Below are positions 3,748-36,970 of a DNA stretch of 64,000 nucleotides, piece after piece. The notes below the pieces were generated by a model, which was not told the origin of the DNA, made no database searches, and saw only the letters and a program-made list of their open reading frames with translations. The position numbers were made by a program, and so were the translations under genes. Source of the DNA: a virus; the IMG/VR virus record IMGVR_UViG_3300029922_000015, positions 1 to 64,000 of that record; one strand, given 5' to 3'. The stretch's first letter is position 1; the number at the start of each line of letters is the position of its first letter.

Positions 3748-4245
3748 ATGGAAGGCAATGGAAATATTTTTCTTTCGGACGCGGAAAAGCAATCTTATCA
3801 GCAAGATTTAGCTAACATTCACGATATATTTGTTCGCCCTTTCACGGTTTTCCGTCAAGCAGAACGAGTGGTAATGAGCGAAAACCCAAACTTTGTTTTT
3901 CCTTACGGAGATAATCAAGAAAACACAAGCTCATCTGGATATGTTATTCAATCCGGCGTAATAGACGCGAGAATCTGGTATATGCCGGGCATAGCCGGAA
4001 ATAAAGAATTACTAGAAACCTCTAGTTCGGATAGAGAATTTTCGGCACGAGGAGAACCTCAAATTCGTTTTCGCAATGATAAAAATTACGTTCGATTGAA
4101 ATTAAATTGCAGCGGATATGATTTCATTAACGGAGCTAAGACTGTTCAGATTGACGATAATAATTTTAATTTTTTCACAGCTTATCGTCGTCACGGATTA
4201 TTTACTCCTGAATTTTGGACGGTATGGTTAGAACAAAATAGTTAA
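3748..4245 (+). CDS. Putative head-closure/neck protein
   Basis: Synteny between adaptor and tail-completion genes; beta-rich. Confidence 0.45.
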   Translation: MEGNGNIFLSDAEKQSYQQDLANIHDIFVRPFTVFRQAERVVMSENPNFVFPYGDNQENTSSSGYVIQSGVIDARIWYMPGIAGNKELLETSSSDREFSARGEPQIRFRNDKNYVRLKLNCSGYDFINGAKTVQIDDNNFNFFTAYRRHGLFTPEFWTVWLEQNS

Positions 4246-4909: not shown

Positions 4910-5826
4910 TGAAGTTAACATACGATCACGTTCTTGTTGCAAGTTTTATGTCTTGGTTTGACTTTACTTTAGTCAACAACGGCGGAGCTTTCTTTAACGC
5001 TAGTTCTTTGCTTTATCCTACTAAAAGTGATTATTATAGTAATCAGTATCTTTATTCTGCTCCTTATAGACCTTGGGCTTATGATACTGGAGTTTCTGGC
5101 GTAAGCGTTCCTACGGGTGTTTACGATGCCAATGGAAATTTTTTGACCAGAGATTCTGGTATTTATATTAGTTTCGATAAAGGGGTTATTGGCTCTAATT
5201 CTCCTTTAGCCGCGCCTTTGAGTGGGAGCTATACGGTTCGCGAATTCGATGTCTTCTATACCAATGAAGATGAAGATACTTTTATTTCTCAAACTAAATT
5301 CGAGCACAAGCCTCAAACTTCGATGCAAATCCCGTCAACGGGACTTCCTTATAGTACGAGAACCTTTCCTTGTTGCGCTGTTAAATATAATGCGGGGGAT
5401 AATAAAGACTTTATGTTCGGCGGAACTCAGAATACCGTATCTCAATTCCGAGTCTTGGTTGTGGCGGATAGTTCCTTTCAAATAGATGGAGTTCTATCTA
5501 TATTTCGAGATTCTAGACTTTCTAACTTTACTCTTTTAGACCCATCTCAATTGCCTTTTAATTCGGTGGGAGATTATAAAGGAGGGGTTCCTTTTAATTA
5601 CTTAAATAATATAAGCACTAACCCTGAAAACTTTATTTGGATCAGCGATGTCGATTGTTTAAAACTCTCAGATGCCGCCGCAACTCGCGTAGGACAAAAG
5701 CTTTATACCGCAATGATCGATTTCACCGTCGAGCGCCCTCGCAACGTCAAACTAACCTTTAGCCCTTTAAGTGGATATGCGGATTTTCGCGTAACAGAAG
5801 ACGGCTATATTCGAATTACTGAATAA
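4909..5826 (+). CDS. Putative tail terminator/completion protein
   Basis: Immediately upstream of the tail tube gene; TFPCCAV...FMFGG...FRVLVVAD pattern. Confidence 0.45.
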   Translation: MKLTYDHVLVASFMSWFDFTLVNNGGAFFNASSLLYPTKSDYYSNQYLYSAPYRPWAYDTGVSGVSVPTGVYDANGNFLTRDSGIYISFDKGVIGSNSPLAAPLSGSYTVREFDVFYTNEDEDTFISQTKFEHKPQTSMQIPSTGLPYSTRTFPCCAVKYNAGDNKDFMFGGTQNTVSQFRVLVVADSSFQIDGVLSIFRDSRLSNFTLLDPSQLPFNSVGDYKGGVPFNYLNNISTNPENFIWISDVDCLKLSDAAATRVGQKLYTAMIDFTVERPRNVKLTFSPLSGYADFRVTEDGYIRITE

Positions 5827-9978: not shown

Positions 9979-12900
9979 ATGCCACAATCAGCCATTACAT
10001 TTGATGTATCAGGAGATACGCGCCGATTAGAACAAGATATCGCGGCGGCGGTTCGTCGCGTACCTGAAATTACCATCCCCGTAAGAATTCAAAGTGCTCC
10101 TTTGGGTCGAATTACAGGTGAGGTTTCAGAATTCGCTAAATCGATGGAAGCGGCGAACGCTCGTTTGGCCGCATTCGGAGCGGGCGCGATTGTCATTGGC
10201 ACGGTGGCTGAATCCCTACGATCTTTGATTGACAATGCGATTAAAGTTAATAAAGCTTTTACAGACATTAATTCGGTTATTCATTTAACCCAAAGTCAAT
10301 TACAAAGCTTCGGTAATGATCTTTTTAATGTAGCTAAAAATACAGGCCAATCTTTCCAAACCGTTACTGAAGTTGCTACTAATTTCGCAAGACAGACTCA
10401 GAACGTTGGCGATATTATTCGCAGAACTAATGATGCGTTAATTCTTTATCGTTTGACCGGATTGGATGTAGGACAATCCCTACAAGCTCTCACGACGATT
10501 GTTAACACTTTCGGCTCTCAAGTCGGAAATAGCACAAATGCACTTAATAAGTTAATTGCAGTAGACCAAGGTTTTGCCGTCCGCGCATCCGATTTGGCTG
10601 AAGCCTTTATTCGAGCGGGAACTGCGGCTAAAGACGCGGGAGTAAATGTAGATCAGTTCGGCGCGTTAGTAACAGCAACACAAGCTATTACTCAGCGAGG
10701 CGGAACTGTTATCGGTAATGCTTTAAAATCTATTTTTACTAGATTAGATAGATCTACCACTCTAGACGACTTGGAAAAATTAGGCATTGCTACTAGAGAT
10801 GTCGAAGGTCATACTTTGGGGGCCATTCAAATTCTAGAAGAACTAGCGAAAAGATATGACACATTAAGCGACTCTCAAAAGTCTTATACATCTCAGTTGG
10901 TTGGCGGTGTTTATAATATCAACGTACTAAAAGCGGCTTTGGGCGATTTGAGCAATCAATATGGAATTTATAATAGAGCTTTGTCAGCTTCACAAAATCC
11001 TAATAATAACGCCGCTATTGATAGAAACGCATTTCAAAATCGTTCGTATTCTTCTTTAATTAATTCTACTCAAGCAAACTTTGTTCAAGCAACTTCACAA
11101 GTTGGCAATCTAACCGTGGCCCCGGCTATTCAAAGAGTATTGGGAGGCGCGTCCGACATTTCTAGTGCTCTTGGCAATATATCGGCTCCGACAGGTAATT
11201 TAAGCTCTTTGGGAACTCAACTCGGACAGGGAATTCTAAAGGGTATCGGGGATTACATTTCCGGCCCCGGATTAACATTGGCGGGGGCTTTAGGTATTAA
11301 ATTCTTTACTAGATTTGCTTCTTTTTCCGCCGGAGCTTTTAAAACAACTTTGAATTTCGGAGGATTCGGAGAAGACGAAAAGAAAGTTCAACAAGGCATT
11401 ATCGATCTGCTTCAACGAAATAAAGGATTATACGACGAAATTATTCAAGACGGGGCAACACGAGAACAACAAGAAAAGACAATTCTTGGGGTTATTCAAC
11501 AACAAATTCAAGCTAGAGAAGAACTACTTGCCGTAAGTCAGAGCTTGGGGACGGTTGCCTTTGGAGAGGGCGTTCGTTATAGTGATCGCGCCGGATTTAA
11601 AAACTCCGCCGGGGGATTTGTTCCTAATTTTCTAGCTTCTAAAGAACAATCTTTAGCGAATAGTCATGGCTATTCTGCCGGAAATGTAATCCCTTATCAA
11701 TTATCGGGTCAGGATTCGGGCATGTCTCCTAGACAATTTATCCAACAAGAGGGAATAAATAAAGCAGGGGGATTTGTTCCGAATGCTATTGTTAATACCG
11801 CTGAATATAAATTAACTCGCGCTGGAAGCAATGCCGTGGGAATTATCCCTCCAAACGACGCCCAAAATATTGATCCAACTAAGGCGGCTTTAAAGGGATA
11901 CAATCTAAGTAAAATCTCTGGCGATGGGTTCGTCCCTAATTTCGCAGATGGAAATGATCCTACCGCTTTGCTATCGGCATTAGGAGTATTCGGAGGATTA
12001 ACAGCCGCAACTATTTTTGGTTCGTTATTCAATAGAGGAGGAAAGGGAGGTTCTTTAGATAAGGGGTTTTCAAGTTCGGGCGAATTCTATGAAAAGCAAG
12101 TTCTAGAAGATTTGGTCGGGCCTACTGCTATTCAACGTAGAACTAAAAGAGGATTATCTCAAATGGCGCGTTCTCATGGCGTCTTGGATAAAAGCGAAAA
12201 TAATCTAACGAAAGTTCAAATTGCTAATCGTATTAATACTGGAATTCTCCAACAATATCCTAATGTTTATCACGGGCTAGTTAAAAAGGGATGGGTTGGA
12301 AACGATGATTTATCTGATAGCGTTCAGGGAAATTTTGATATCCTACAAGGATTAGGGATTCGTGGAGCGGGGTTTGTTCCTAATTTCGCTTTAAATTCTG
12401 ATCTTAAAGGCGTTGAGTTCATAGCTAAATTAAAAAATGCTTTATTAATTCGCAATCCAGAAAAGCAATCTCAGATTCTTGGCCATCTTTACAAACAATA
12501 TGGTAGACTAATTAAAAATCCCGAAGTTGCTTCGAAATTAGATAATAATGTCACAAACGCATTAGCAAAGTTCTTTCCTGAAACTAGCCAATCTCCCTTT
12601 AATGCATCTTTGGCGAACTCCCTTAAAGGAAAATCATTATCTTATTTATTACCAGACGAACCTGAGACTAGAGCTTTAGGTCGTTTCGAATCTATCTTTT
12701 CTAAAAATGTAATAAAGGCTCCTTTAACAAGATATTCTGATCCTAGCAATACCGATTCAAATCTGGATTTTACTGGTTCAGGTAGAAATTTGCCCGGATT
12801 TCGAGCTAACGACCCTTATTCTATTGGAAATAGTAAATTTTCTGAAGCTAAATTAGCAGGATTGGGTAATGTTGTTTCTGTAGGGAGACTGGCTAAAAAC

Positions 12901-15900
12901 TTCGAATCTGGATTATCTAATCAAGAGAAAACTCAAAAATTAATCTCTATCGCGGATAGACTTTTTCCCCAAGGCTGGTACGCAAAGCCAGAGGACTCTA
13001 GACCTTTCCAATATTTTGAAGGTCACGTTGCGGAAGCGGACAAAGCCGGTTTCCAGAGTCAGGGTATTTATCCTGATTATGCTATTAAAAATCATAATGG
13101 AAATTTATGGATTCCAGAAGAGGGATATTATTTTCAAAGCAAATTCGACGTAGATTCTCAGCCTACTAAACTCGCTAAGCAACAAGCAAGATATGCGGGG
13201 GATACGGAAAGAGGACGATATGATAAATATGAAGATAATTTTACTTCTCCTGAGTACCGAGTTCATATTATAGGATCGGGAGAGGACGGAGCATCTAAAG
13301 TAGTTCCTTTCGCTACATTCCGTAAAGATGAAAATCATAAGATAGGATATAATGAAATTCCTTATGTCCGCGAAACAGATGAAATTCGCAAAATTCATGC
13401 GGCGGCTTTAGCTAGAATTAATCAATTACCATCTCGCGAAAGAGACAATGTTGTTTTTGCCCCCGATGTAATTAAACTTAAGGATGGCTCATATGGAGTT
13501 ATCGAACTAAATCCTTCTGTAGATAAAACTGGAAATCCTTATGCCGTCGCCGGAACGAGTGGAGCTTTAACAAATAACAGTTTTGTTCAAGATGCTATAT
13601 CGGGTTTTGTAAGAGGAACTAAGCCTCTTTTAGCTAGAATAGGAGACAGAAATCCTAATTTTGCTAAATTATTTGGTTACGGAGCGGGATTCGTTCCTAA
13701 TTTTGCCGATCCTTTAAACGCGGCTTTCTCTCGCGAAGCCTCCTTCGGAAAAACTCCTATTCTAGGCTCCGCTCCTGAATTAGGAATTCCCGTTGGAGTT
13801 TACAACACCGAACAACAAGGAAAATACGGAAGTTTATCGAATACCATTCGCGCGGATCATTTATCTAGAGGGGAAAGTTTGGGTTCTTTGCCTTTAACTG
13901 GAAGTGGCAAGGAGAGTTATGTACCTAATTTCGCTGATAATCCACAAGGGGGTTTGTTTGATTTAGATCGAGTATTAAAAGAATTAACAGCTTCGATACA
14001 AAGCGCGAACGCAGCGATGACTGAAACAGAGCGCGTAGAACAAGCAAGATTCAATCGTGCCCGCGCTCAAGATGAAAGCGAATCTATCGGAATTCGCAAT
14101 CAGTATCCCGGTTCCGAGCCTTTGTATCAAGGGGGTTATGCTCCGTATAGCGCAAATAATCCTTATATCAATAAGAACGAACTAGATAATTCTAAAAAAA
14201 GTAGTTTTAATTATACGGGAATCGGTAGCTTAAGCGACGTTGCCCCTAAATTCCCTAGATTTTCAGAAGGTACTTCCCAAAAGTTATTTGGAGCTAGTTT
14301 CGTTGCTCCGTTACTAGGCGGGGTTGCGGGACAATTTTTAAATTCGAATGGAGGCAATCCCCAAGGAGAAAGAATTGCTCAGGGAGTCGGATCGGCGGCT
14401 GGAACGGCATTAACCTTCGCCGCTCTTGGTGGGCCTTATGGAGCGGCCATTGGTGCGGTTATTGGTGGTTTGCAAGTATTGAGCACGGCAATCGAAAACT
14501 CGACTCCCTCTTTCGAAGATTTATCTAAAAAAGCAGAAGAATATAAAGATAAGCAAGATCAACAGATTAATTCTATTCAAGGATTAATTCAAGCTCAGGC
14601 GCAATTAAAATCAGCTATTAATAGCGGAAACTCACAAGATATCGACGCCGCTAGAAAAAATTTCACCCAAGCGCGTTTAAGCCCCAATCTAAGTCCCGAT
14701 CTTTTAAAACAAATTGACGCCGCTCAAACGCCGGGGGATCAACAAAAATTGATAGCCGGTCTAACCGAAAATTCTGGAAATGCTTATAATTTACAACAGG
14801 GAATCGCGGGGCTTAGGGGGCTATTAGATAATTCTGATATTCATGGATTACAGAGTGTTTTTTCGAATGGTCAAATTTCAGCTACGGAAAAAACTCAAAT
14901 ACAATCCATCGCTCAGAGTTTAATATCTTCGGGCGAGGTTACTCCTTTTAAGAAGGGCGGCCTTATTACCAAAGACGATTTAGAGTATAATAGTAATTCG
15001 GACATAGCTAAAAATTTCGATTTTCGCTCAAGACTTTCTGACGAAGAAAAGTCTTCTATAATAAACACTTTGAATAAGGTATATCGAGATCAACAAAATG
15101 CTATTAAAACAGGAGACGCTTTTACTCCTATTGCAAGTATTGGCGATCAAAGATCAAATTTCCTTTTAGCGGCTAATCAAGGTATCGCCGCTAATCAATT
15201 CAGAATTAACAAAACCGTCGGAGTCAACACAAACGCTTTGGATTACGCTAGCCAATTGTTAGAAAATAGAAAAGATATTACTAATCAGCAAGATTATTTA
15301 CAAGCGAATCAAAATATACAATCCGGGCGACTAAAAAATGATTTAGGTCAACAGAATTCCTCGGTTTTAAGTAGTTTAGCTCAAAATATCGCTCAGCGTC
15401 TAGCGGGAAACACTCAAGACACAGGTGGCCCGTCGGATATTGCTACTCAAAAGCAAATTTTAGATATTATTAATCAATCCGGCGCGGGAAAACTATCCGG
15501 CAATGATATTATTGAAAAATTAAGTGATTCTATCAAATCCATTCAAAACGGGTCGATTCAGCAAGAACTTAAACAAGAATTACAAAAGCAACAGCTATCT
15601 TTAGCAGATATTGGACAAAAATTTGATATTGCGAATACTGCTTTAGCAAACTCTTTAAAAGTACAACAAGACGCATTAAATCTAGATAACACAAAGAAGT
15701 CTTTCGGTGGAATAGGTACTTTAGGTAATGCCCAAGCGTTAAGCGCATTGATTAATCCTATAACCCAAGGAACTCAAGTTAATATTCAGGCGGGAATTGC
15801 GGCGGGTTCATTGAATACCGCCGGACGAAGATCGCAATTCGCTCCCGGCGCATCAGGAGATTTACAATTCCAAGAATCTGAACAATCGAGATTAGGTCGG

Positions 15901-17301
15901 GTTGGAGCTTCGCGTTTTAACGCATATCAAAACTTTACGAAGATTTTTCCAGAGGCCGCTAACGATAATGATGCGCGCAATAAGCTTTTATACCCCGACG
16001 GACAAAATACGGCAGGAGGCGTTCGAGCCAATGATATCACCGGATATATTAAAGGTATTATTGGACAATTGGGAACTTTAGGAGGGAGAAACGGACAAGT
16101 CTTATCTCGCTTACAAAATCAATCGGCTTATTCTTTGCAACACGGCGGAGATATAAGTGGAACGATAGCCGAAATTCAAAAAATTTCGCAAGACCCGGCT
16201 TTTCGAGGAAACGATATTCAATCAGAATTTAAAGGAGTATTAGATACTCTAGGACAGTCTAATAAATTTATTCATCCCGATACTGTTAATGGGATTTCCG
16301 TGGGACAAGTTTATCGTACTTTAGCGCAAAACAGAACCGGCCCCGCCTCTTTGTCGATAGGAGATTCTTTGTCCCATTACGGAGCTAGCATCGATAGAAA
16401 TGCTTATAATAAGGCTTTTAGCGGAAAGAATATAATAGAAGATTATTTTCATACTCGTCGTGGAGGAAGTGATCCGTTAGATTCTTTTATTAAGAGAGAT
16501 GCTTATAATAAAGTTTTTGACCCCGAAACTCAAAAAAGAATAGATGGTTGGAGAAAGACTAGAAGTTCTCTTACAGACCCTAAATTAATACATCAAGCGG
16601 ATTTGGCAATTCAGGATATAGAAAATGGCCCTCTCACTTTATCGCAACCACTGGCGAATATAGCCAAGACGACTTCGCCAATCATACCTAATCCTCTAGG
16701 GATTAGATCGCAGGGGAATACTCAAGCTGACATTGCCGCTGGAAATGCTCCGGTATCTCAGCAAATTAAAGACATTACTAATAGTTTACAAAATATCTCA
16801 ACTCAAGATTTGAATATTAAAGCTACAACAGTTACTTTATCTGGAGATTTAAGTCAAAAATTAGTTGGGGCTTATGACTTAACGCAATTAGGACAGACGC
16901 AAACAAAGGCCGAACACGATTTAACGGTAGCTACCGCAAGGGATCAGGGCAATGCCGGGGCAATAGCTAAGGATCAGCAACAATATATCGATACTTTCAC
17001 CGCCGCTTTAACCCCAGCCCTTGTAGCCGCATTAAAAGAAGCGTCCGCTTCGGACGCGAATGGAAAACCAATTCAAGTTGATATCGGATTAAATTCCAAA
17101 GTGTCTATAACTTCTGGTTTAGCAAAAAGTATTGGAAATGCGGATAATTTACAAAAATTGCAGCAACAATTGGATAAAGTAATTCAGGAGGCTATTCATA
17201 GATATGTCAAGAATACTTCCTTAAATGTAGTACCGGATCGTTCTAATAGTGGTAGCGATACAAGTGATACAGGAACAAGTTTGAATGGAAGCGGTAGCTA
17301 A
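9979..17301 (+). CDS. Tape measure protein with inserted cargo domains, including an ATP-grasp-like domain
   Basis: TP901-type TMP core at the N-terminus (LFNVAKNTGQSFQTV...DLAEAFIRAGTAAKDAGV...IGNALKSIFTRL); six GFVPNF-like motifs; Gln/Ala-rich coiled coil C-half. Confidence 0.85.
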   Translation: MPQSAITFDVSGDTRRLEQDIAAAVRRVPEITIPVRIQSAPLGRITGEVSEFAKSMEAANARLAAFGAGAIVIGTVAESLRSLIDNAIKVNKAFTDINSVIHLTQSQLQSFGNDLFNVAKNTGQSFQTVTEVATNFARQTQNVGDIIRRTNDALILYRLTGLDVGQSLQALTTIVNTFGSQVGNSTNALNKLIAVDQGFAVRASDLAEAFIRAGTAAKDAGVNVDQFGALVTATQAITQRGGTVIGNALKSIFTRLDRSTTLDDLEKLGIATRDVEGHTLGAIQILEELAKRYDTLSDSQKSYTSQLVGGVYNINVLKAALGDLSNQYGIYNRALSASQNPNNNAAIDRNAFQNRSYSSLINSTQANFVQATSQVGNLTVAPAIQRVLGGASDISSALGNISAPTGNLSSLGTQLGQGILKGIGDYISGPGLTLAGALGIKFFTRFASFSAGAFKTTLNFGGFGEDEKKVQQGIIDLLQRNKGLYDEIIQDGATREQQEKTILGVIQQQIQAREELLAVSQSLGTVAFGEGVRYSDRAGFKNSAGGFVPNFLASKEQSLANSHGYSAGNVIPYQLSGQDSGMSPRQFIQQEGINKAGGFVPNAIVNTAEYKLTRAGSNAVGIIPPNDAQNIDPTKAALKGYNLSKISGDGFVPNFADGNDPTALLSALGVFGGLTAATIFGSLFNRGGKGGSLDKGFSSSGEFYEKQVLEDLVGPTAIQRRTKRGLSQMARSHGVLDKSENNLTKVQIANRINTGILQQYPNVYHGLVKKGWVGNDDLSDSVQGNFDILQGLGIRGAGFVPNFALNSDLKGVEFIAKLKNALLIRNPEKQSQILGHLYKQYGRLIKNPEVASKLDNNVTNALAKFFPETSQSPFNASLANSLKGKSLSYLLPDEPETRALGRFESIFSKNVIKAPLTRYSDPSNTDSNLDFTGSGRNLPGFRANDPYSIGNSKFSEAKLAGLGNVVSVGRLAKNFESGLSNQEKTQKLISIADRLFPQGWYAKPEDSRPFQYFEGHVAEADKAGFQSQGIYPDYAIKNHNGNLWIPEEGYYFQSKFDVDSQPTKLAKQQARYAGDTERGRYDKYEDNFTSPEYRVHIIGSGEDGASKVVPFATFRKDENHKIGYNEIPYVRETDEIRKIHAAALARINQLPSRERDNVVFAPDVIKLKDGSYGVIELNPSVDKTGNPYAVAGTSGALTNNSFVQDAISGFVRGTKPLLARIGDRNPNFAKLFGYGAGFVPNFADPLNAAFSREASFGKTPILGSAPELGIPVGVYNTEQQGKYGSLSNTIRADHLSRGESLGSLPLTGSGKESYVPNFADNPQGGLFDLDRVLKELTASIQSANAAMTETERVEQARFNRARAQDESESIGIRNQYPGSEPLYQGGYAPYSANNPYINKNELDNSKKSSFNYTGIGSLSDVAPKFPRFSEGTSQKLFGASFVAPLLGGVAGQFLNSNGGNPQGERIAQGVGSAAGTALTFAALGGPYGAAIGAVIGGLQVLSTAIENSTPSFEDLSKKAEEYKDKQDQQINSIQGLIQAQAQLKSAINSGNSQDIDAARKNFTQARLSPNLSPDLLKQIDAAQTPGDQQKLIAGLTENSGNAYNLQQGIAGLRGLLDNSDIHGLQSVFSNGQISATEKTQIQSIAQSLISSGEVTPFKKGGLITKDDLEYNSNSDIAKNFDFRSRLSDEEKSSIINTLNKVYRDQQNAIKTGDAFTPIASIGDQRSNFLLAANQGIAANQFRINKTVGVNTNALDYASQLLENRKDITNQQDYLQANQNIQSGRLKNDLGQQNSSVLSSLAQNIAQRLAGNTQDTGGPSDIATQKQILDIINQSGAGKLSGNDIIEKLSDSIKSIQNGSIQQELKQELQKQQLSLADIGQKFDIANTALANSLKVQQDALNLDNTKKSFGGIGTLGNAQALSALINPITQGTQVNIQAGIAAGSLNTAGRRSQFAPGASGDLQFQESEQSRLGRVGASRFNAYQNFTKIFPEAANDNDARNKLLYPDGQNTAGGVRANDITGYIKGIIGQLGTLGGRNGQVLSRLQNQSAYSLQHGGDISGTIAEIQKISQDPAFRGNDIQSEFKGVLDTLGQSNKFIHPDTVNGISVGQVYRTLAQNRTGPASLSIGDSLSHYGASIDRNAYNKAFSGKNIIEDYFHTRRGGSDPLDSFIKRDAYNKVFDPETQKRIDGWRKTRSSLTDPKLIHQADLAIQDIENGPLTLSQPLANIAKTTSPIIPNPLGIRSQGNTQADIAAGNAPVSQQIKDITNSLQNISTQDLNIKATTVTLSGDLSQKLVGAYDLTQLGQTQTKAEHDLTVATARDQGNAGAIAKDQQQYIDTFTAALTPALVAALKEASASDANGKPIQVDIGLNSKVSITSGLAKSIGNADNLQKLQQQLDKVIQEAIHRYVKNTSLNVVPDRSNSGSDTSDTGTSLNGSGS
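11614..13935 (+). repeat. Six GFVPNF(A)-like peptide motifs within the tape measure protein
   Basis: GFVPNFL 11614, GFVPNAI 11770, GFVPNFA 11926, 12370 and 13687, SYVPNFA 13915. Confidence 0.9.
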
Positions 17302-31513: not shown

Positions 31514-31543
31514 AAAAGCCTATAAAATTAATTATAGGCTTTT
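31514..31543 (-). terminator. Intrinsic terminator closing the TnpB/ncRNA unit (possibly bidirectional)
   Basis: 12-bp inverted repeat AAAAGCCTATAA / TTATAGGCTTTT with a 6-nt loop and T-rich tail. Confidence 0.75.
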
Positions 31544-31557
31544 ATTTGTTTCTCTCG

Positions 31558-31618
31558 ATTTTCGTTTAAGCGGATAACAACATCACTTACTCTTTAACGA
31601 CATACGAAAGGACTTGTC
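31558..31618 (-). ncRNA. 61-nt pseudoknotted RNA scaffold, copy C (omegaRNA-like)
   Basis: GACAAGTCCTTTCGTATGTCGTTAAAGAGTAAGTGATGTTGTTATCCGCTTAAACGAAAAT; 56/61 identical to copy A. Confidence 0.75.
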
Positions 31619-31630
31619 GAGCTTTTACGT

Positions 31631-31691
31631 ATTTCTTCTTTGTTAGATAGCTACATCAACAACCCTTTATAGACGGGAAGAAGGAACCGTC
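31631..31691 (-). ncRNA. 61-nt pseudoknotted RNA scaffold, copy B, overlapping the tnpB stop codon
   Basis: GACGGTTCCTTCTTCCCGTCTATAAAGGGTTGTTGATGTAGCTATCTAACAAAGAAGAAAT; 37/61 identical to A with 9 compensatory pair changes. Confidence 0.75.
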
Positions 31692-33067
31692 TCTTTAGCT
31701 TTTTGATAACTAAATTCTTGAAATGTCAATGGAGCACCCCTTTTTGTTTTATTAAACTTCATGTAACCCTTTGTTCTAATAGAACGCCACGTATAAAAAT
31801 CTTTCAGTCCTTCTTTCCAAATTATTAGTCCGAATCGAGCAATATTTTTAGCTCCACTAATGTGAGCGTCGAAAGCAGAATGGCAATTCGGGCATTGCGT
31901 CTTATCGTGCGTTTCACGATCTAATTGCGCATCACAACCCAAACACATTTGACTAGTATAAGCGGTCGGCACCAAAACAAATGGGATTCGTTCTTCATAA
32001 CAACGTTTCTGCAAATATTTAATAATTTTATCGTGACCAAACGATCCCATATTAGCACCAGCGGTTAAATTATCAATACATAGCAAAAATCTATTTTCTT
32101 TAATAAACGGAAACCAAGAATCGACAATAGGACGTATAATTTTCAAAAAATGAGCGTGCTTTCTTTGAATCTTAAAACGAATGGCGCTTCTTCGAGCTTG
32201 CGTCAGCCTTTCGGAAGGAAATTTTCTGTCATATTTTTCTTTCCATTCTTTATTAAGTTCGTTTAATCCTTGAATTGCATTTTGACACGCCGGACTCAAG
32301 GATAATTTGATTTTTTCATTAATAGACTGGCTAAAAACTATACTGTTGTCTTTATGACGATTTAAATCGATCCCAAGTGAAGCTTGAGGTAAATAAGCCC
32401 ATTCGAAATCGATAAGTAGAACCATTACATATTCCCATCTTCCGCTATTATATCGGATAAGATTTCCTCCTTTAAACCATTCTCCTTTAGTATTAAGCGA
32501 GTAGTTTCTCTTTAGAGTCTCGATTTTCCATTGGGCGGCTTCGGGAATGGTAAATGGAATAGATAACCATTCATTATCTTTCAAATAATAGGAAAAGATA
32601 TCGTTCGAAATTTTTACCACTCCGCTACTTTGAATTTGAATCGATTTTCCGTTCTTGATTTTAGGAGGAGAAGTAATTGATTTTTTCTTGAATCGCTTGG
32701 CTCGCGAGGAATACATTTCGATAGCTTTAAACGAAATAGCTTTGGCTGGGGCTTGCTTGTTCCACCCGAATCTCTCTTGAAATTTTGGCATTAATTCTCT
32801 AGTAAAATCATCAGGGAATTTAGCTCTTTTCGGTTTTAAATCGTCCAAAGAGATTTCTTGATTATTATATTTATCGTGAATAATTTCAAGACTATCATTG
32901 ACAGCTTTTTTAAATCCATTTAAAATCTCCAATAGCATTGTTTCCTGATTTGGAGTAGGATTTAAATGCAAATTAACTTTAATTAATTTGAATGGTTTTT
33001 CTTTCCATTCTGAATCGAAAGGGAGTCTTTGTTTTTTCATAGGAAAATGCGGAATAGTTTGACCCAT
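31667..33067 (-). CDS. tnpB: TnpB/Cas12f-like RNA-guided protein with non-canonical RuvC triad
   Basis: IS605 OrfB-type N-terminus (VNLHLNPTPNQETML...KAVN); RuvC-I LGID234LN; RuvC-II LCID332NL; TSQMCxxC...CxxC Zn finger; RuvC-III DAH402ISGAKNI. Confidence 0.85.
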   Translation of the reverse strand: MGQTIPHFPMKKQRLPFDSEWKEKPFKLIKVNLHLNPTPNQETMLLEILNGFKKAVNDSLEIIHDKYNNQEISLDDLKPKRAKFPDDFTRELMPKFQERFGWNKQAPAKAISFKAIEMYSSRAKRFKKKSITSPPKIKNGKSIQIQSSGVVKISNDIFSYYLKDNEWLSIPFTIPEAAQWKIETLKRNYSLNTKGEWFKGGNLIRYNSGRWEYVMVLLIDFEWAYLPQASLGIDLNRHKDNSIVFSQSINEKIKLSLSPACQNAIQGLNELNKEWKEKYDRKFPSERLTQARRSAIRFKIQRKHAHFLKIIRPIVDSWFPFIKENRFLLCIDNLTAGANMGSFGHDKIIKYLQKRCYEERIPFVLVPTAYTSQMCLGCDAQLDRETHDKTQCPNCHSAFDAHISGAKNIARFGLIIWKEGLKDFYTWRSIRTKGYMKFNKTKRGAPLTFQEFSYQKAKETVPSSRL

Positions 33068-33089
33068 TCCGCATTATTAGTTTCAGGCT

Positions 33090-33150
33090 ATTTTCGTTTA
33101 AGCTGATAACTACATCGCTTACTCTTTATAGACATACGAAAGGACTTGTC
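33090..33150 (-). ncRNA. 61-nt pseudoknotted RNA scaffold, copy A, upstream of tnpB
   Basis: GACAAGTCCTTTCGTATGTCTATAAAGAGTAAGCGATGTAGTTATCAGCTTAAACGAAAAT; starts 1 nt after the SSB-like gene's stop codon. Confidence 0.75.
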
Positions 33151-33151
33151 T

Positions 33152-33703
33152 TTAAAACGGATCGGCCCCGCTATCTTCTCCGGCAGTTGAATCCTCACCC
33201 TTTGGAGTTTCAGACGACTTCGGAGCTTGAGCTTTTTTAGCCGCGTAATCCTTTGCCCGCTTGATATCTTCTGAATATTGAGCGTCGAAGAAATGAGTTA
33301 AAACATACTTTAAATGTTCTTCTAGTAGAACCGCCTCGTCTAATGTAAACGGCACTTTCCACTTTTCGGTATTCTTAAGGACGGTCAAACCGAATCCGGC
33401 CACCGTATCAGAATCCTTTGTCTTATAAGGAGCAAAGAAAATGGTAGTCTTCGAATCTGCGGTTGTATGGAAAAACTTAACTTCGATTAAATTACGAAGC
33501 GAGCGCAGAAATCCGCCAATCTCCGTTGCGTTAAATTTAATGTTTAGCTTCTGTCCCTCCTTAAAGCTTCCGATGTGACGAGACTCGTCGTATCCTGTTT
33601 GTCTGACAATTTGAATGTATAGCGCCCCGTCTTTACTATTGAAAGAAAAGTCCGCGAGTGCTCCCGTTACTGTTTTATTTGGTTTGAAAAAACTTAGGCC
33701 CAT
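33152..33703 (-). CDS. Putative single-stranded DNA-binding protein (PC4/Whirly-like fold)
   Basis: Beta-beta-beta-alpha pattern twice; disordered acidic tail ending SGADPF like the bacterial SSB C-terminus; adjacent to DnaE. Confidence 0.5.
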   Translation of the reverse strand: MGLSFFKPNKTVTGALADFSFNSKDGALYIQIVRQTGYDESRHIGSFKEGQKLNIKFNATEIGGFLRSLRNLIEVKFFHTTADSKTTIFFAPYKTKDSDTVAGFGLTVLKNTEKWKVPFTLDEAVLLEEHLKYVLTHFFDAQYSEDIKRAKDYAAKKAQAPKSSETPKGEDSTAGEDSGADPF

Positions 33704-33735: not shown

Positions 33736-36321
33736 TTACGTTACTTTATCCACTAATTCTTCTTCTTTAAATTCATTTCTTAACTCTGAAAGCTTAGTAT
33801 AAATTTTAAAGTTTTGAATGTCACATTTATCCAAAAAGATTGTTTCGTTATCTTGTTTTTTTCCCTTGACAAAGACGATATCTCCTTCTTTCGGAATAAC
33901 TCCGCCATTCTCTTCCATGATCAAATCGACGGTCGCCGAACGTTCCGTGTTAAACGCCATAGCTCTAATGATTCCCGTTTCGTCTTGCAGACTTAGGGCG
34001 AGATAGACTGTTCCTTTACGAGAGGTTTTTTTTGAACTTTCTAGAACTTCGCACACAGAGAAAATTCGATCATTCTGGTCTTTTTTGTCTTGGATATCCC
34101 GAACCGTCTCTAGAAGATTCATGTACTCAGAATTAATTTCTCGAAGATTGTAAGTATATGGATAACCCATATTCTGCTTTTCGTAGTAGTAGATTGCTAG
34201 TTTATCAAATTGACTATTCTTCTGGAAAATCTCTTTGTATGGTGCTGCACGACGCTTTAAAGTTTCTAGTCGGGTGTCTTTGATATAAGGCTTTCCCTTA
34301 TCATTTTTATTCTTAATCATGTACCCTAAAATTTCGCGCAAGTCTTTATACTTGTCACTCATTTGGATAAAGATAGCGTGAACGTATTTCTTTTCGGTCG
34401 CTGTAAGCAAACGATAAAGCTGAGCCTCGTAAACAAGAGAACTTCGGTCAATATCGGATTCTAAACAGCCGCTCTGAATTAAGCAGGAAAGAACCCCGAT
34501 ATTGATTTTGCATTGTTCTGCGGCGGCAAATAGCTCGAATCGATTTGCATATTCCTTACGGAAACCAAGAAGCTTTTCGATGGTCTTATCTGAAATACCA
34601 CGCAATGATCCTAGCCCATAACGAATATTTCCATTCTCAATTGAAAATTCCAACTTAGAATTAGTTAGGCTTGGAGGTAAAAGCTTAATTCCGAAATCTT
34701 GCAACTCGTGTTGAATCGTATTAATTTCCTGTAATGGGTTTTGCTCGAACTTGGCTTGATTGAGCAAAGCAATATAAAACTGCAAAGGGTGTTTGTATTT
34801 TAGATAAATAGTTAAAGCAGCTAAGGCCGCGAAGGAAACAGAGTGAGAAAGATTGAACGAGTATTTAGATGAATCGTCTAGAATCTTCCATAGCAATTCG
34901 CCCAAAGCTTCGGGGTGCTTATTTTCCTTACATTTGGCGTAAATCTTTTCTTTCCATTCTTTAACTTCGTCTACTTTTTTCTTACCTACGATGCGACGAA
35001 GAATTTCCGCTTCTTCTAAAGAGAAGCCCATCGCATGAGCCATTTGCATCATTTCCTCTTGATATAAACACACATATCGAGTCTTTTTTAGAATAGGATC
35101 AAAAATAGGATGAACTTTTTCATCCGAGTTAGCCACGTACTTATCCACATAAGCAAGAGCGCCGGGGCGAGCCATAGCAACCACGTCAGATAATTCTAAC
35201 AAATTCTTAGGACAAACTTGATTAGCCACGCGCAAATTACAATCCGCTTCGAGTTGGAAAATACCATGCGGATACTTTAAACCGTATTTTAAATTATCGT
35301 AAATAATAGGATCGTTGTCTACGTTGATAGTGCGCCAATCAATTCCTAGCTGCTTACAACAATCGTCAACCACGGCAGAACAACGCGAACCAAGAATATC
35401 TAACTTAATAGATAAAGAGGAAACATCATTCATAGTATAGCAACTGACTAAATCTTTATCTTTGGTAAGTTGCAGGGGCATTTCGTCTAATAGTTCTTTA
35501 TACGAAACGACGTATCCCGAAGCGTGAACCGAGGAATTCTTATAGAGATTTCTTAGCTTTAAAGCTATCTCATAAGCTTCTTTGTTTTCATCTGCCCATC
35601 TACGAAATTCCGCTTCGTCTTTATATGCATCTTCTAAATCGTGAACTATGCCAAAATGTTTAGGAATTAAATCGGCGACCTTAACCATCTCATGTTCGGG
35701 ATGCTCCTCAACAATCTTTCCGCATTCCTTGATTAGAATTTTTCCGCTCAATTCTGACATATTCAGAATTTTGCACATACGATTAGGATAGAGAGAATTA
35801 AGGAACTCGACTACCTGTTGACGTTTATGAGGGTTCACATCCAAATCGACATCGGGAGCCAATCCCCCGTCGATATAAGTTATTCCTTCTACGACCTTCT
35901 TTTTAGCGCGAGTCTTAGAAATGAATCGTTCGAAGAACAATCCATATTTTAAAGGATCGATTTCAGTAACCCCCAAGCAATAGAATATGAGCGATCCTGC
36001 TGCGCTTCCGCGACCGTAATCTCGCATAATATTATTAGTTTGACAAAAATTACATACGCGCCATACTAGTAAGAAATAATCTACAAAACCCAATTCACTG
36101 ATCGTATCTAACTCTCTATGTAACCGAGCTAAATAATCAGGATTGTTATCTGATAAACCGCGTTGAGCAAAACCCTTTTGAGCGATAAACCCAAGAAATT
36201 GATCATTACTACAGTTCTTATTTCCGTAAGTAGAGAGTTCTTCTTCGGTAAGACGTATTTCTGGTAATCTAATATATCCAAAATCGAACTTATAGTTCGT
36301 AAATTTATCTGTGAAACTCAT
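33736..36321 (-). CDS. dnaE: DNA polymerase III alpha subunit lacking the N-terminal PHP domain
   Basis: GFVDYFL, GRGSAAGSL, LFFERF, PDVDLD, VHASG, KLDILG, YSFNLSH, C-terminal OB fold. Confidence 0.92.
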   Translation of the reverse strand: MSFTDKFTNYKFDFGYIRLPEIRLTEEELSTYGNKNCSNDQFLGFIAQKGFAQRGLSDNNPDYLARLHRELDTISELGFVDYFLLVWRVCNFCQTNNIMRDYGRGSAAGSLIFYCLGVTEIDPLKYGLFFERFISKTRAKKKVVEGITYIDGGLAPDVDLDVNPHKRQQVVEFLNSLYPNRMCKILNMSELSGKILIKECGKIVEEHPEHEMVKVADLIPKHFGIVHDLEDAYKDEAEFRRWADENKEAYEIALKLRNLYKNSSVHASGYVVSYKELLDEMPLQLTKDKDLVSCYTMNDVSSLSIKLDILGSRCSAVVDDCCKQLGIDWRTINVDNDPIIYDNLKYGLKYPHGIFQLEADCNLRVANQVCPKNLLELSDVVAMARPGALAYVDKYVANSDEKVHPIFDPILKKTRYVCLYQEEMMQMAHAMGFSLEEAEILRRIVGKKKVDEVKEWKEKIYAKCKENKHPEALGELLWKILDDSSKYSFNLSHSVSFAALAALTIYLKYKHPLQFYIALLNQAKFEQNPLQEINTIQHELQDFGIKLLPPSLTNSKLEFSIENGNIRYGLGSLRGISDKTIEKLLGFRKEYANRFELFAAAEQCKINIGVLSCLIQSGCLESDIDRSSLVYEAQLYRLLTATEKKYVHAIFIQMSDKYKDLREILGYMIKNKNDKGKPYIKDTRLETLKRRAAPYKEIFQKNSQFDKLAIYYYEKQNMGYPYTYNLREINSEYMNLLETVRDIQDKKDQNDRIFSVCEVLESSKKTSRKGTVYLALSLQDETGIIRAMAFNTERSATVDLIMEENGGVIPKEGDIVFVKGKKQDNETIFLDKCDIQNFKIYTKLSELRNEFKEEELVDKVT

Positions 36322-36322
36322 A

Positions 36323-36970
36323 TTAAATTTCTAATTGCTTTACTAACGGATGAAAAACCTCAAAGGTTTTTTTAATATCTACTAATGCGTCATGCATTTC
36401 ATCGGGATTATAAGCGATTCCCAAATCTCTACACAATTGAGCTAGGTTCGTCTTTAGTCCCTTCTTTCTAACACTTAGGAAGCGATATTGTTGAGCCAAG
36501 AAATCTTCTGTTTCTTTAAATTTAAGCCCTAATTTCCAGCAAACCGCTAATGCACGAACATCGATAATCCTATCAATATAAGAATAGTCTATAGAGTTTC
36601 CGAAGTTTTCGCGCCACATACTATGAATGTAAACATCAAAATTCAACAGATTTTGTCCTACGATAATATACTCTTCATTATACAAATCCTTATCAAACAA
36701 ATCTAATATTTCTTTAGGGTCTTGTCCGTAAAGCTCAATATTTCTAGGGTCGAATCTTGTTGCAGCCGCCGCCCCCGGTGAGATGTAAAAATCAGGCCAT
36801 CTAAGATAATAATTATTCTTTTTGATGATTTCAGTTCCTTGACATATCAACCACGAGACTTGCCAAGGTCTGTTATACCCCATTGCTAAATTAAGACACG
36901 AAGTTTCCAAATCGGGAACCATGAACTTCTTTTTCGAGAAGTTATATTTAAGGGATTCAGAGCCTATCAT
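36323..36970 (-). CDS. DEDDh 3'-5' exonuclease (epsilon/DnaQ-like)
   Basis: DLETS, GQNLLNFD, HDALVD. Confidence 0.85.
   Translation of the reverse strand: MIGSESLKYNFSKKKFMVPDLETSCLNLAMGYNRPWQVSWLICQGTEIIKKNNYYLRWPDFYISPGAAAATRFDPRNIELYGQDPKEILDLFDKDLYNEEYIIVGQNLLNFDVYIHSMWRENFGNSIDYSYIDRIIDVRALAVCWKLGLKFKETEDFLAQQYRFLSVRKKGLKTNLAQLCRDLGIAYNPDEMHDALVDIKKTFEVFHPLVKQLEI

Follow-up and report, generated by a model that had tools for sequence, protein, structure and literature searches.

The window analyzed here is a stretch of 64,000 nucleotides (positions 1 to 64,000) of the IMG/VR virus record IMGVR_UViG_3300029922_000015, which is 149,934 bp long and estimated to be 75% complete, and the gene in question is an open reading frame (ORF) on its minus strand (31667–33067 including the stop codon, 466 aa) encoding a TnpB/Cas12f-like protein. 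The D-E-D triad of the TnpB/Cas12f superfamily is not present in this protein, in which the triad is D234/D332/H402. The reading favored here, at a probability of roughly 0.55, is that the ORF is an intact, selected, virus-borne member of the TnpB/Cas12f-like proteins whose site is most likely catalytic, and that it belongs to what is proposed to be a homing cassette. Judged from the comparison of homologous sequences, His402 is most likely a conserved and functionally tolerated replacement of the third carboxylate, and the site is predicted to be still catalytic because the His- and Gln-type members of the family are conserved and unrelaxed and keep D234, N236, and D332. Argonaute proteins offer a parallel within the RNase H fold, where DEDD and DEDH sites both occur and His is an alternative last ligand. 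The initial annotation had left the choice between a nuclease-dead regulator and a retooled enzyme; the comparative evidence favors the retooled enzyme and makes the silencer less likely.

Fold and active-site residues

All active-site residues are read from the minus strand. Asp234 (GAT, 32366–32368) of the GIDLN motif holds the RuvC-I position, and Asn236 in the same motif is family-conserved too; Asp332 (GAT, 32072–32074), in LCIDNL, holds the RuvC-II position, where canonical TnpB has Glu; and His402 (CAC, 31862–31864), in DAHISGAKNI, is assigned to the RuvC-III position by profile alignment, with Asp400 (31868–31870) two residues before it. The C4 zinc finger of the TNB domain (C375/C378/C392/C395) is encoded at 31883–31945. 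The numbering of the three residues in the initial annotation is exact, and its zinc finger is indeed intact, with all four Cys present. His402 is taken to stand at the position of the catalytic Asp because the family profile, which reads 'dahenaAknIa', aligns with the RuvC-III motifs 'aDfNASQNI', 'DRDTNAARNI', and 'NADYNAARNI' of solved Cas12f and Cas12m structures. The RuvC-II equivalence is supported by P0151, the single homolog with a canonical RuvC-II motif (IAIEDV), whose Glu aligns onto D332. The sole Pfam match of the protein is PF07282 (Cas12f1-like TNB; residues 345–409, E 8e-11), and PHROG 506, named 'transposase', matches residues 29–419. The true start of the ORF is probably Met10 (ATG 33038–33040), because homologs align only from residue 10–16 on.

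An AlphaFold2 model of the protein was built from 36 homologs; it has RuvC topology, a predicted local distance difference test score (pLDDT) of 84.5, and a predicted template modeling score (pTM) of 0.83. In this model, strand 229–235 ends with D234, strand 327–332 ends with D332, and helix 401–419 starts with H402. Foldseek matched the model to AsCas12f (E 7e-14), and VIA-align aligned it with OsCas12f 9nzs (Z 18.2, 364 residues aligned), with ISDra2 TnpB 8h1j (Z 16.7, 346 of its 362 residues aligned), and with mimivirus Fanzor2 (Z 14.6). By this model, the protein is a full-length TnpB/Cas12f fold, bilobed, with a WED/REC part and a split RuvC into which a zinc-finger (TNB) domain is inserted. 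The overall fold and the zinc-finger TNB domain are thus those of ISDra2 TnpB (PDB 8H1J, 8EXA) and Cas12f; unlike ISDra2 TnpB, the protein has D-D-H instead of D-E-D and DxN instead of DxG as its RuvC-I motif, and it is not accompanied by TnpA.

Conservation of the RuvC site in the family

A HMMER scan of 1.84 billion protein representatives yielded 201 homologs, the best of them 31–36% identical to the query, and the counts given below refer to a MAFFT alignment of the best 150 of these 201. Asp was found at position 234 in all 146 homologs with a residue there (4 of the 150 have gaps) and in 138 of the 138 full-length members, and Asn at position 236 in 137 of 150. Position 332 is Asp in 149 homologs and Glu in P0151 alone, and each of the four zinc-finger Cys is present in 144–148. 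At position 402 there are 66 homologs with Asp, 60 with His, 23 with Gln, and 1 with Tyr, so that His is common to 40% of the family, with most of the nearest relatives of the query among them. Judged by these alignments, Asp at RuvC-II is the family norm and no change private to the query gene, and the 'rewritten triad' of the initial annotation overstates the uniqueness of the protein, since Asp332 occurs in 149 of the 150 homologs and His402 in 60. The D-D-H arrangement is a family trait, with RuvC-III confined to Asp, His, and Gln plus one Tyr; scattered substitutions, which would be a sign of decay, were looked for in the 150 homologs and were not found. Searches of the phage collection and IMG/VR gave no close relatives of the TnpB-like protein or of the gene upstream of it, and a word-indexed protein search with the TnpB-like protein gave one distant match only.

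The members with His or Gln at position 402 are as strongly conserved in the rest of the site as the others. D234 and N236 are each kept in 58 of 58 His-type members and D332 in 60 of 60, while all three residues are kept in 23 of 23 Gln-type members. The mean column entropy of the RuvC/TNB half is 2.09 in the His-type, 1.95 in the Gln-type, and 2.12 in the Asp-type, and the 21 most conserved positions are kept at 94.6%, 95.2%, and 92.3%, respectively. A further conserved acidic residue was sought in the family alignment and none was found. The sole column linked to the state of 402 is position 400, where 86% of the Gln-type, 17% of the His-type, and 29% of the Asp-type carry an acidic residue; an acidic residue near the RuvC-III position is present in the query, as D400, but is conserved in the Gln-type only. 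On a FastTree phylogeny of the 138 full-length members, built with the columns of the 402 trait left out, the 402 state is clustered (about 27 changes compared with 59 in shuffles) and still switches repeatedly, and one well-supported clade of 30 contains 17 His, 13 Gln, and no Asp. This pattern indicates that Asp, His, and Gln at 402 are constrained, interchangeable residues, because His and Gln alternate inside Asp-free clades.

A decaying relic, with catalytic residues that are drifting, would be the simplest explanation of the unusual letters. The query does sit on a long terminal branch, and it has Ser404 where 119 of the 150 homologs have Asn; against this, the frame is open, all 21 of the most conserved family positions are kept, the model is confident, and His at 402 is common to 60 homologs, in agreement with the initial annotation, which called the ORF not decayed, so that a relic is scarcely credible.

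It has been reported that the RIIIr-4 clade of TnpB and other RIIIr branches carry an Asp-to-His change at RuvC-III, and that RIIIr-4 is enriched in viruses and is without the C4 zinc finger (Altae-Tran et al. 2023, PMC10691335). The present family resembles RIIIr-4, whose activity was predicted computationally, in its conserved RuvC-III His and its association with viruses. Unlike RIIIr-4 as described, it keeps the C4 zinc finger, has Asp for Glu at RuvC-II in nearly every member, alternates between Asp, His, and Gln at RuvC-III, and has scaffold repeats both before and after the gene. The family may correspond to another branch of the Altae-Tran census, such as the virus-associated RIIr-4. 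In Fanzor and TnpB2-type sites, the RuvC-II Glu is replaced by Pro or Gly and an alternative Glu lies about 45 residues away (PMC10530073); the present family differs in having Asp at the canonical RuvC-II position and no other conserved acidic residue.

The genomic surroundings of the homologs are varied. Ten homolog clusters were looked up, and none had an NCBI or UniRef record or accession; their sources were Logan, ENA, and JGI/IMG, and the names given there are 'transposase' and 'hypothetical protein' only. Many homologs were found on large virus-like contigs, 60 to 587 kb long, one of them by T4-type capsid genes and others among glycosyltransferases or nucleotide-metabolism genes. No conserved partner gene was found, the neighbors differing in every homolog locus examined, and in the examined loci the TnpB-like gene itself was the only called gene with a transposase Pfam family. 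In the 587-kb contig (L020:35-3943), the His-type P0006 directly follows a ribonucleotide reductase large subunit with an intein and LAGLIDADG, and a second LAGLIDADG gene lies 2.5 kb downstream, several selfish nuclease genes being clustered there. Another His-type member, P0157, was found as an identical protein in the same neighborhood (Glyco_transf_34, UvdE) in at least 9 of 16 contigs (L021-L029) from several samples; it appears to be stably carried in its virus lineage, because both the protein and its neighborhood recur in contigs from different samples.

These contexts also bear on whether the protein could be a TldR-type repressor, that is, a domesticated, nuclease-dead TnpB kept by the phage to silence one specific gene. 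TldRs have been described as showing progressive loss of the site, often lacking the zinc finger and the C-terminal part of RuvC, with a fixed partner gene and a guide directed to a promoter (10.1101/2023.11.30.569447). Such proteins are, like the present one, derived from TnpB and non-canonical in their catalytic letters; some are encoded by phages, and two of the three catalytic positions here are non-canonical by letter. Neither progressive site loss nor C-terminal loss is seen here: the zinc finger is intact, as is the C-terminal part of RuvC, the RuvC-III helix is modeled with confidence, D234 and D332 are conserved family-wide (146 of 146 and 149 of 150), and position 402 is restricted to the residues listed above. 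The varied contexts contradict a fixed partner, the gene is absent from three related phages (L009, L011, L030), and no matching site for the candidate guides was found in the phage's own genome. The comparison favors the view that the His and Gln members have a constrained, working site, unlike the stepwise deterioration described for TldRs, and a repressor of this kind is very unlikely.

Scaffold RNAs and insertion in the phage genome

Three copies of a 61-nt RNA scaffold flank the gene, all on the minus strand. Copy U (33090–33150) begins 1 nt past the stop codon of a 183-aa ORF upstream, copy M (31631–31691) extends over the last codons and the stop codon of the TnpB-like gene, and copy D (31558–31618) follows. 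The scaffold is predicted to fold as a pseudoknot of 18 pairs, in which columns 1–4 pair with 17–20, 10–15 with 54–59, and 30–37 with 44–52. All 54 cells (18 pairs in three copies) are standard pairs, and 9 of the 18 pairs are changed on both sides in copy M, which is to say that the changes are compensatory; when the partners were slid by 1–3 columns as a control, 37–48% of the cells paired. The covariance model R1 and a motif search found only these three copies in the record. In the TnpB/Cas12f superfamily a guide-RNA scaffold is expected at the 3' end of the gene, and the candidate scaffold is found there, with M overlapping the stop codon and D following it. The extension of the scaffold over the 3' end and the pseudoknot in the RNA are as in the omega/reRNA of ISDra2 TnpB; unlike that RNA, the scaffold is short (61 nt) and present in three copies, one of which is upstream of the gene. 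Rfam and tRNA scans of the window gave no match.

Each scaffold is followed by a short segment on the same strand. A 16-nt segment, AGCCTGAAACTAATAA (33074–33089), follows U and may be a candidate guide or a tail of the scaffold, and the same applies to the 16-nt segment CGAGAGAAACAAATAA (31542–31557) after D; a 12-nt segment, ACGTAAAAGCTC (31619–31630), lies between M and D. With these segments, U and D form 77-nt direct repeats that bound the insertion (33150–33074 and 31618–31542), with 87% identity and the first 20 nt identical; these two are the only full-length copies in the 150-kb record, and M with its 12-nt segment (31691–31619) is a third, more diverged copy. The 16-nt segments after U and D are followed by a 12-bp hairpin and by a terminator, respectively. 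The 12-bp hairpin (33044–33073, minus strand; −17.8 kcal/mol, z −4.1) spans the first ATG and stops 4 nt short of the Met10 ATG, and it may terminate transcripts of the upstream operon or limit translation of the TnpB-like gene.

Repeats were also found beside other members of the family. The covariance model R1 detected no homologous scaffold in 15 other loci; long repeats with periods of about 83–133 nt adjoin the gene in four of the seven other loci with enough flank (L017, L018, L019, and L020). The Gln-type locus L017 has 83-nt units in two pairs, one upstream of the gene and the other at or beyond its 3' end (2412–2577 and 3846–4011), and these arrays form a 150-nt flanking direct repeat of 81% identity, with the same layout as in the window. 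In the His-type locus L020, a pair of 85-nt units lies at the gene's 3' end (5254–5423), while upstream repeat arrays are present in the Asp-type L018 (3389–3916) and the His-type L019 (3717–3936). The units of L017 and L020 fold with compensatory pairs, and by eye the L020 unit and the window unit are alike in two features, a loop-to-3' pairing and a 5' hairpin with UAUAAAGAG after it. On the evidence of these loci, the repeat layout around the gene is a family trait. Apart from the family, a degenerate 29-nt pattern of the scaffold core had no match in IMG/VR or the metagenome collection, and a 17-nt exact scaffold seed matched four IMG/VR contigs, one of the matches being inside a large ORF and taken as chance. 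The other three contigs are of one phage lineage (L013:804-860, L014:81-140, L015:12430-12487) and match the 5' part of the scaffold, AAGTCCTTTCGTATGTCGT, exactly over 19 nt, with GTTATCC coming 29 nt after the match; the site is a short gap between genes, none of the neighbors is TnpB-like, and the match could be chance or a remnant.

Besides ribonucleotide reductase, the phage encodes a DnaB-type helicase and a DnaE-type polymerase whose exonuclease subunit is separate. In the related phages L009, L011, and L030, whose polymerases are 44–49% identical, the DnaE polymerase, the 183-aa gene, a 654-aa gene, and a 402-aa gene occur in that order with nothing between the 183-aa and 654-aa genes. 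In the window, about 1.6 kb (33150 to 31542) separates the stop codon of the 183-aa gene from a strong intrinsic terminator (31514–31543, minus strand); in L009 the element-free site has just a terminator, and the terminator of the window is probably the ancestral terminator of the upstream operon as well as the right insertion border. By this gene order, the TnpB-like gene is an insertion specific to this lineage, placed within the replication module of a large phage. The gene is single-copy in the 150-kb record, and another contig, L012, which encodes the same protein, is 100% identical to it over 7.4 kb, with no microdiversity. A metagenome scan with the downstream gene for nearer cassette-free phages gave one further, more distant relative.

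The borders raise the question of how the cassette moves. The 77-nt repeats might be the ends of a non-autonomous IS200/IS605-type element mobilized by a host Y1 TnpA in trans, with TnpB serving in retention; this concerns the movement of the cassette, and the nuclease could be active all the same. Directly oriented subterminal hairpins of a similar kind are typical of IS200/IS605 ends, the borders of the insertion coincide exactly with the repeats, L017 shows the same layout, and the PHROG 506 'transposase' match covers residues 29–419. Against such an element, PF01797 (Y1 TnpA) had no match in the 150-kb record, which is about 75% complete, while the same search matched 10 of 14 control genomes, 6 of them above the curated cut-off. 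In addition, the repeat is long (77–150 nt), the pseudoknot with compensatory changes in the internal copy M points to a role as RNA, and the IMG/VR and metagenome scans showed neither further copies of the ends nor further insertion sites, so that this origin of the repeats is considered unlikely.

Proposed mechanism and alternatives

On the favored reading, the gene and its three pseudoknotted, omega-RNA-like scaffolds of 61 nt would form a transposase-less cassette of about 1.6 kb (about 33150 to 31542), situated between the stop codon of the 183-aa gene and the terminator of that gene. The scaffolds would be co-transcribed with the gene and the upstream operon and would load the protein; the guides would be either the short segments that lie 3' to the scaffolds or the flanking DNA; the complex would cut matching DNA of related cassette-free phages, and this cutting would drive homing or the exclusion of competitors. 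A similar life is led by the free-standing homing endonuclease genes of T-even phages, Seg and Mob (review PMC13565253). The TnpB-like gene is like them in being a solitary predicted nuclease gene between conserved phage genes, absent from relatives, and with a hairpin over its start codon; unlike them, targeting would be by RNA, and homing is here a proposal. It has also been reported that omega-RNA or CRISPR-like arrays with long (>60 bp) repeats occur near Cas12f-related TnpBs (PMC10691335). The repeated scaffold units of 60–130 nt beside the effector gene are like those arrays, and they differ in that units lie on both sides of the gene and that the inter-unit segments, of 12–16 nt, are mutually similar and not clearly spacer-like. 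An extended version of the proposal, in which the switch of the third ligand between Asp, His, and Gln tunes the chemistry (metal preference, nicking or double-strand cutting, substrate) and the two-sided scaffold-plus-guide arrays target allelic site variants in competing viruses, is regarded as doubtful.

Precedents for an active site of this kind exist in the literature. TnpB clades with a conserved RuvC-III Asp-to-His change have been taken as predicted active (PMC10691335), and the rearranged RuvC sites of Fanzor and TvTnpB do cleave (PMC10530073). Several points weigh against catalysis and homing, in addition to the Ser404 and the long branch of the query. No experiment on cutting by a His- or Gln-type RuvC-III of TnpB or Cas12 was found in the literature, and canonical TnpB is killed by mutation of any of its DED residues (10.1101/2023.11.30.569447). 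Gln is a poor metal ligand, and the alternation of His with Gln could mean that the role of position 402 is not catalytic; D234 and D332 would also be conserved if RuvC only processed the guide-RNA array. For the guides, comparison of the candidate segments with the 150-kb phage genome gave chance matches of 11–12 nt only, the 16-nt segments after U and D may be scaffold and not guides because they are identical to each other at 11 of 16 positions, with the differences mostly at the 5' end, and no closely related cassette-free phage was found in which a guide could be matched to the empty site.

These points lead to the alternative of an RNA-guided binder or silencer, in which no DNA is cut, D234, D332, and H402 are kept for processing the scaffold transcript, and the bound complex blocks transcription or replication of the host or a competitor. 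In Cas12c, the RuvC site is used for guide-RNA processing. A multi-unit RNA array needs such processing, and the alternation of His and Gln at a metal ligand is easier to accept for a less demanding reaction. TnpB has been reported to process its own guide in a RuvC-dependent manner (cited in 10.1101/2023.11.30.569447), fewer than two of the three DED residues are canonical by the strict rule of the TldR screen, and Cas12m is reported to block transcription or replication of its target (PMC10691335). On the other hand, Asp-type members are interleaved with His- and Gln-type members and are equally constrained, which suggests one shared activity, and the Asp-Asp-Asp members resemble ordinary nucleases; the sporadic insertion without a conserved partner or target gene, and the lack of a complementary site in the phage genome, do not suit a silencer either. 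A binder is therefore a minority possibility, albeit a substantial one.

Whichever of these holds, the family bears on how such proteins are counted. The conserved RuvC-III His in TnpB clades is already published, on computational grounds only (PMC10691335), and automated screens count proteins with His or Gln at RuvC-III as dead. The family is a natural test set, in which members with Asp, His, and Gln mix on a single tree under equal constraint and a compact candidate guide RNA accompanies each version. Should the His and Gln versions prove active, censuses of inactive TnpBs would need correcting, and small nucleases (about 430–460 aa), perhaps with a different chemistry, would become available; should they be inactive on DNA, the family would be a large set of RNA-guided binders carried by viruses. 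The placement of scaffold copies before and after the gene also bears on the origin of omega-RNA and CRISPR-like arrays.

Some further observations concern the surrounding genes. Among the plus-strand ORFs of the window is one of 2,440 aa (9979–17301); 5 of these ORFs were scanned without a PHROG match, and the virion module of this phage looks largely uncharacterized. The 183-aa gene between the polymerase and the insertion (33152–33703, minus strand) has no PHROG match and a weak PD-(D/E)XK Pfam match (E 0.026), and it is conserved in the related phages at 24–29% identity. The DnaE-type polymerase (33736–36970, minus strand) is short, at 861 aa, and is preceded by a 215-aa gene like an exonuclease subunit (PHROG 192); this arrangement of DnaE with a separate exonuclease subunit is kept in L009, L010, L011, and L030.

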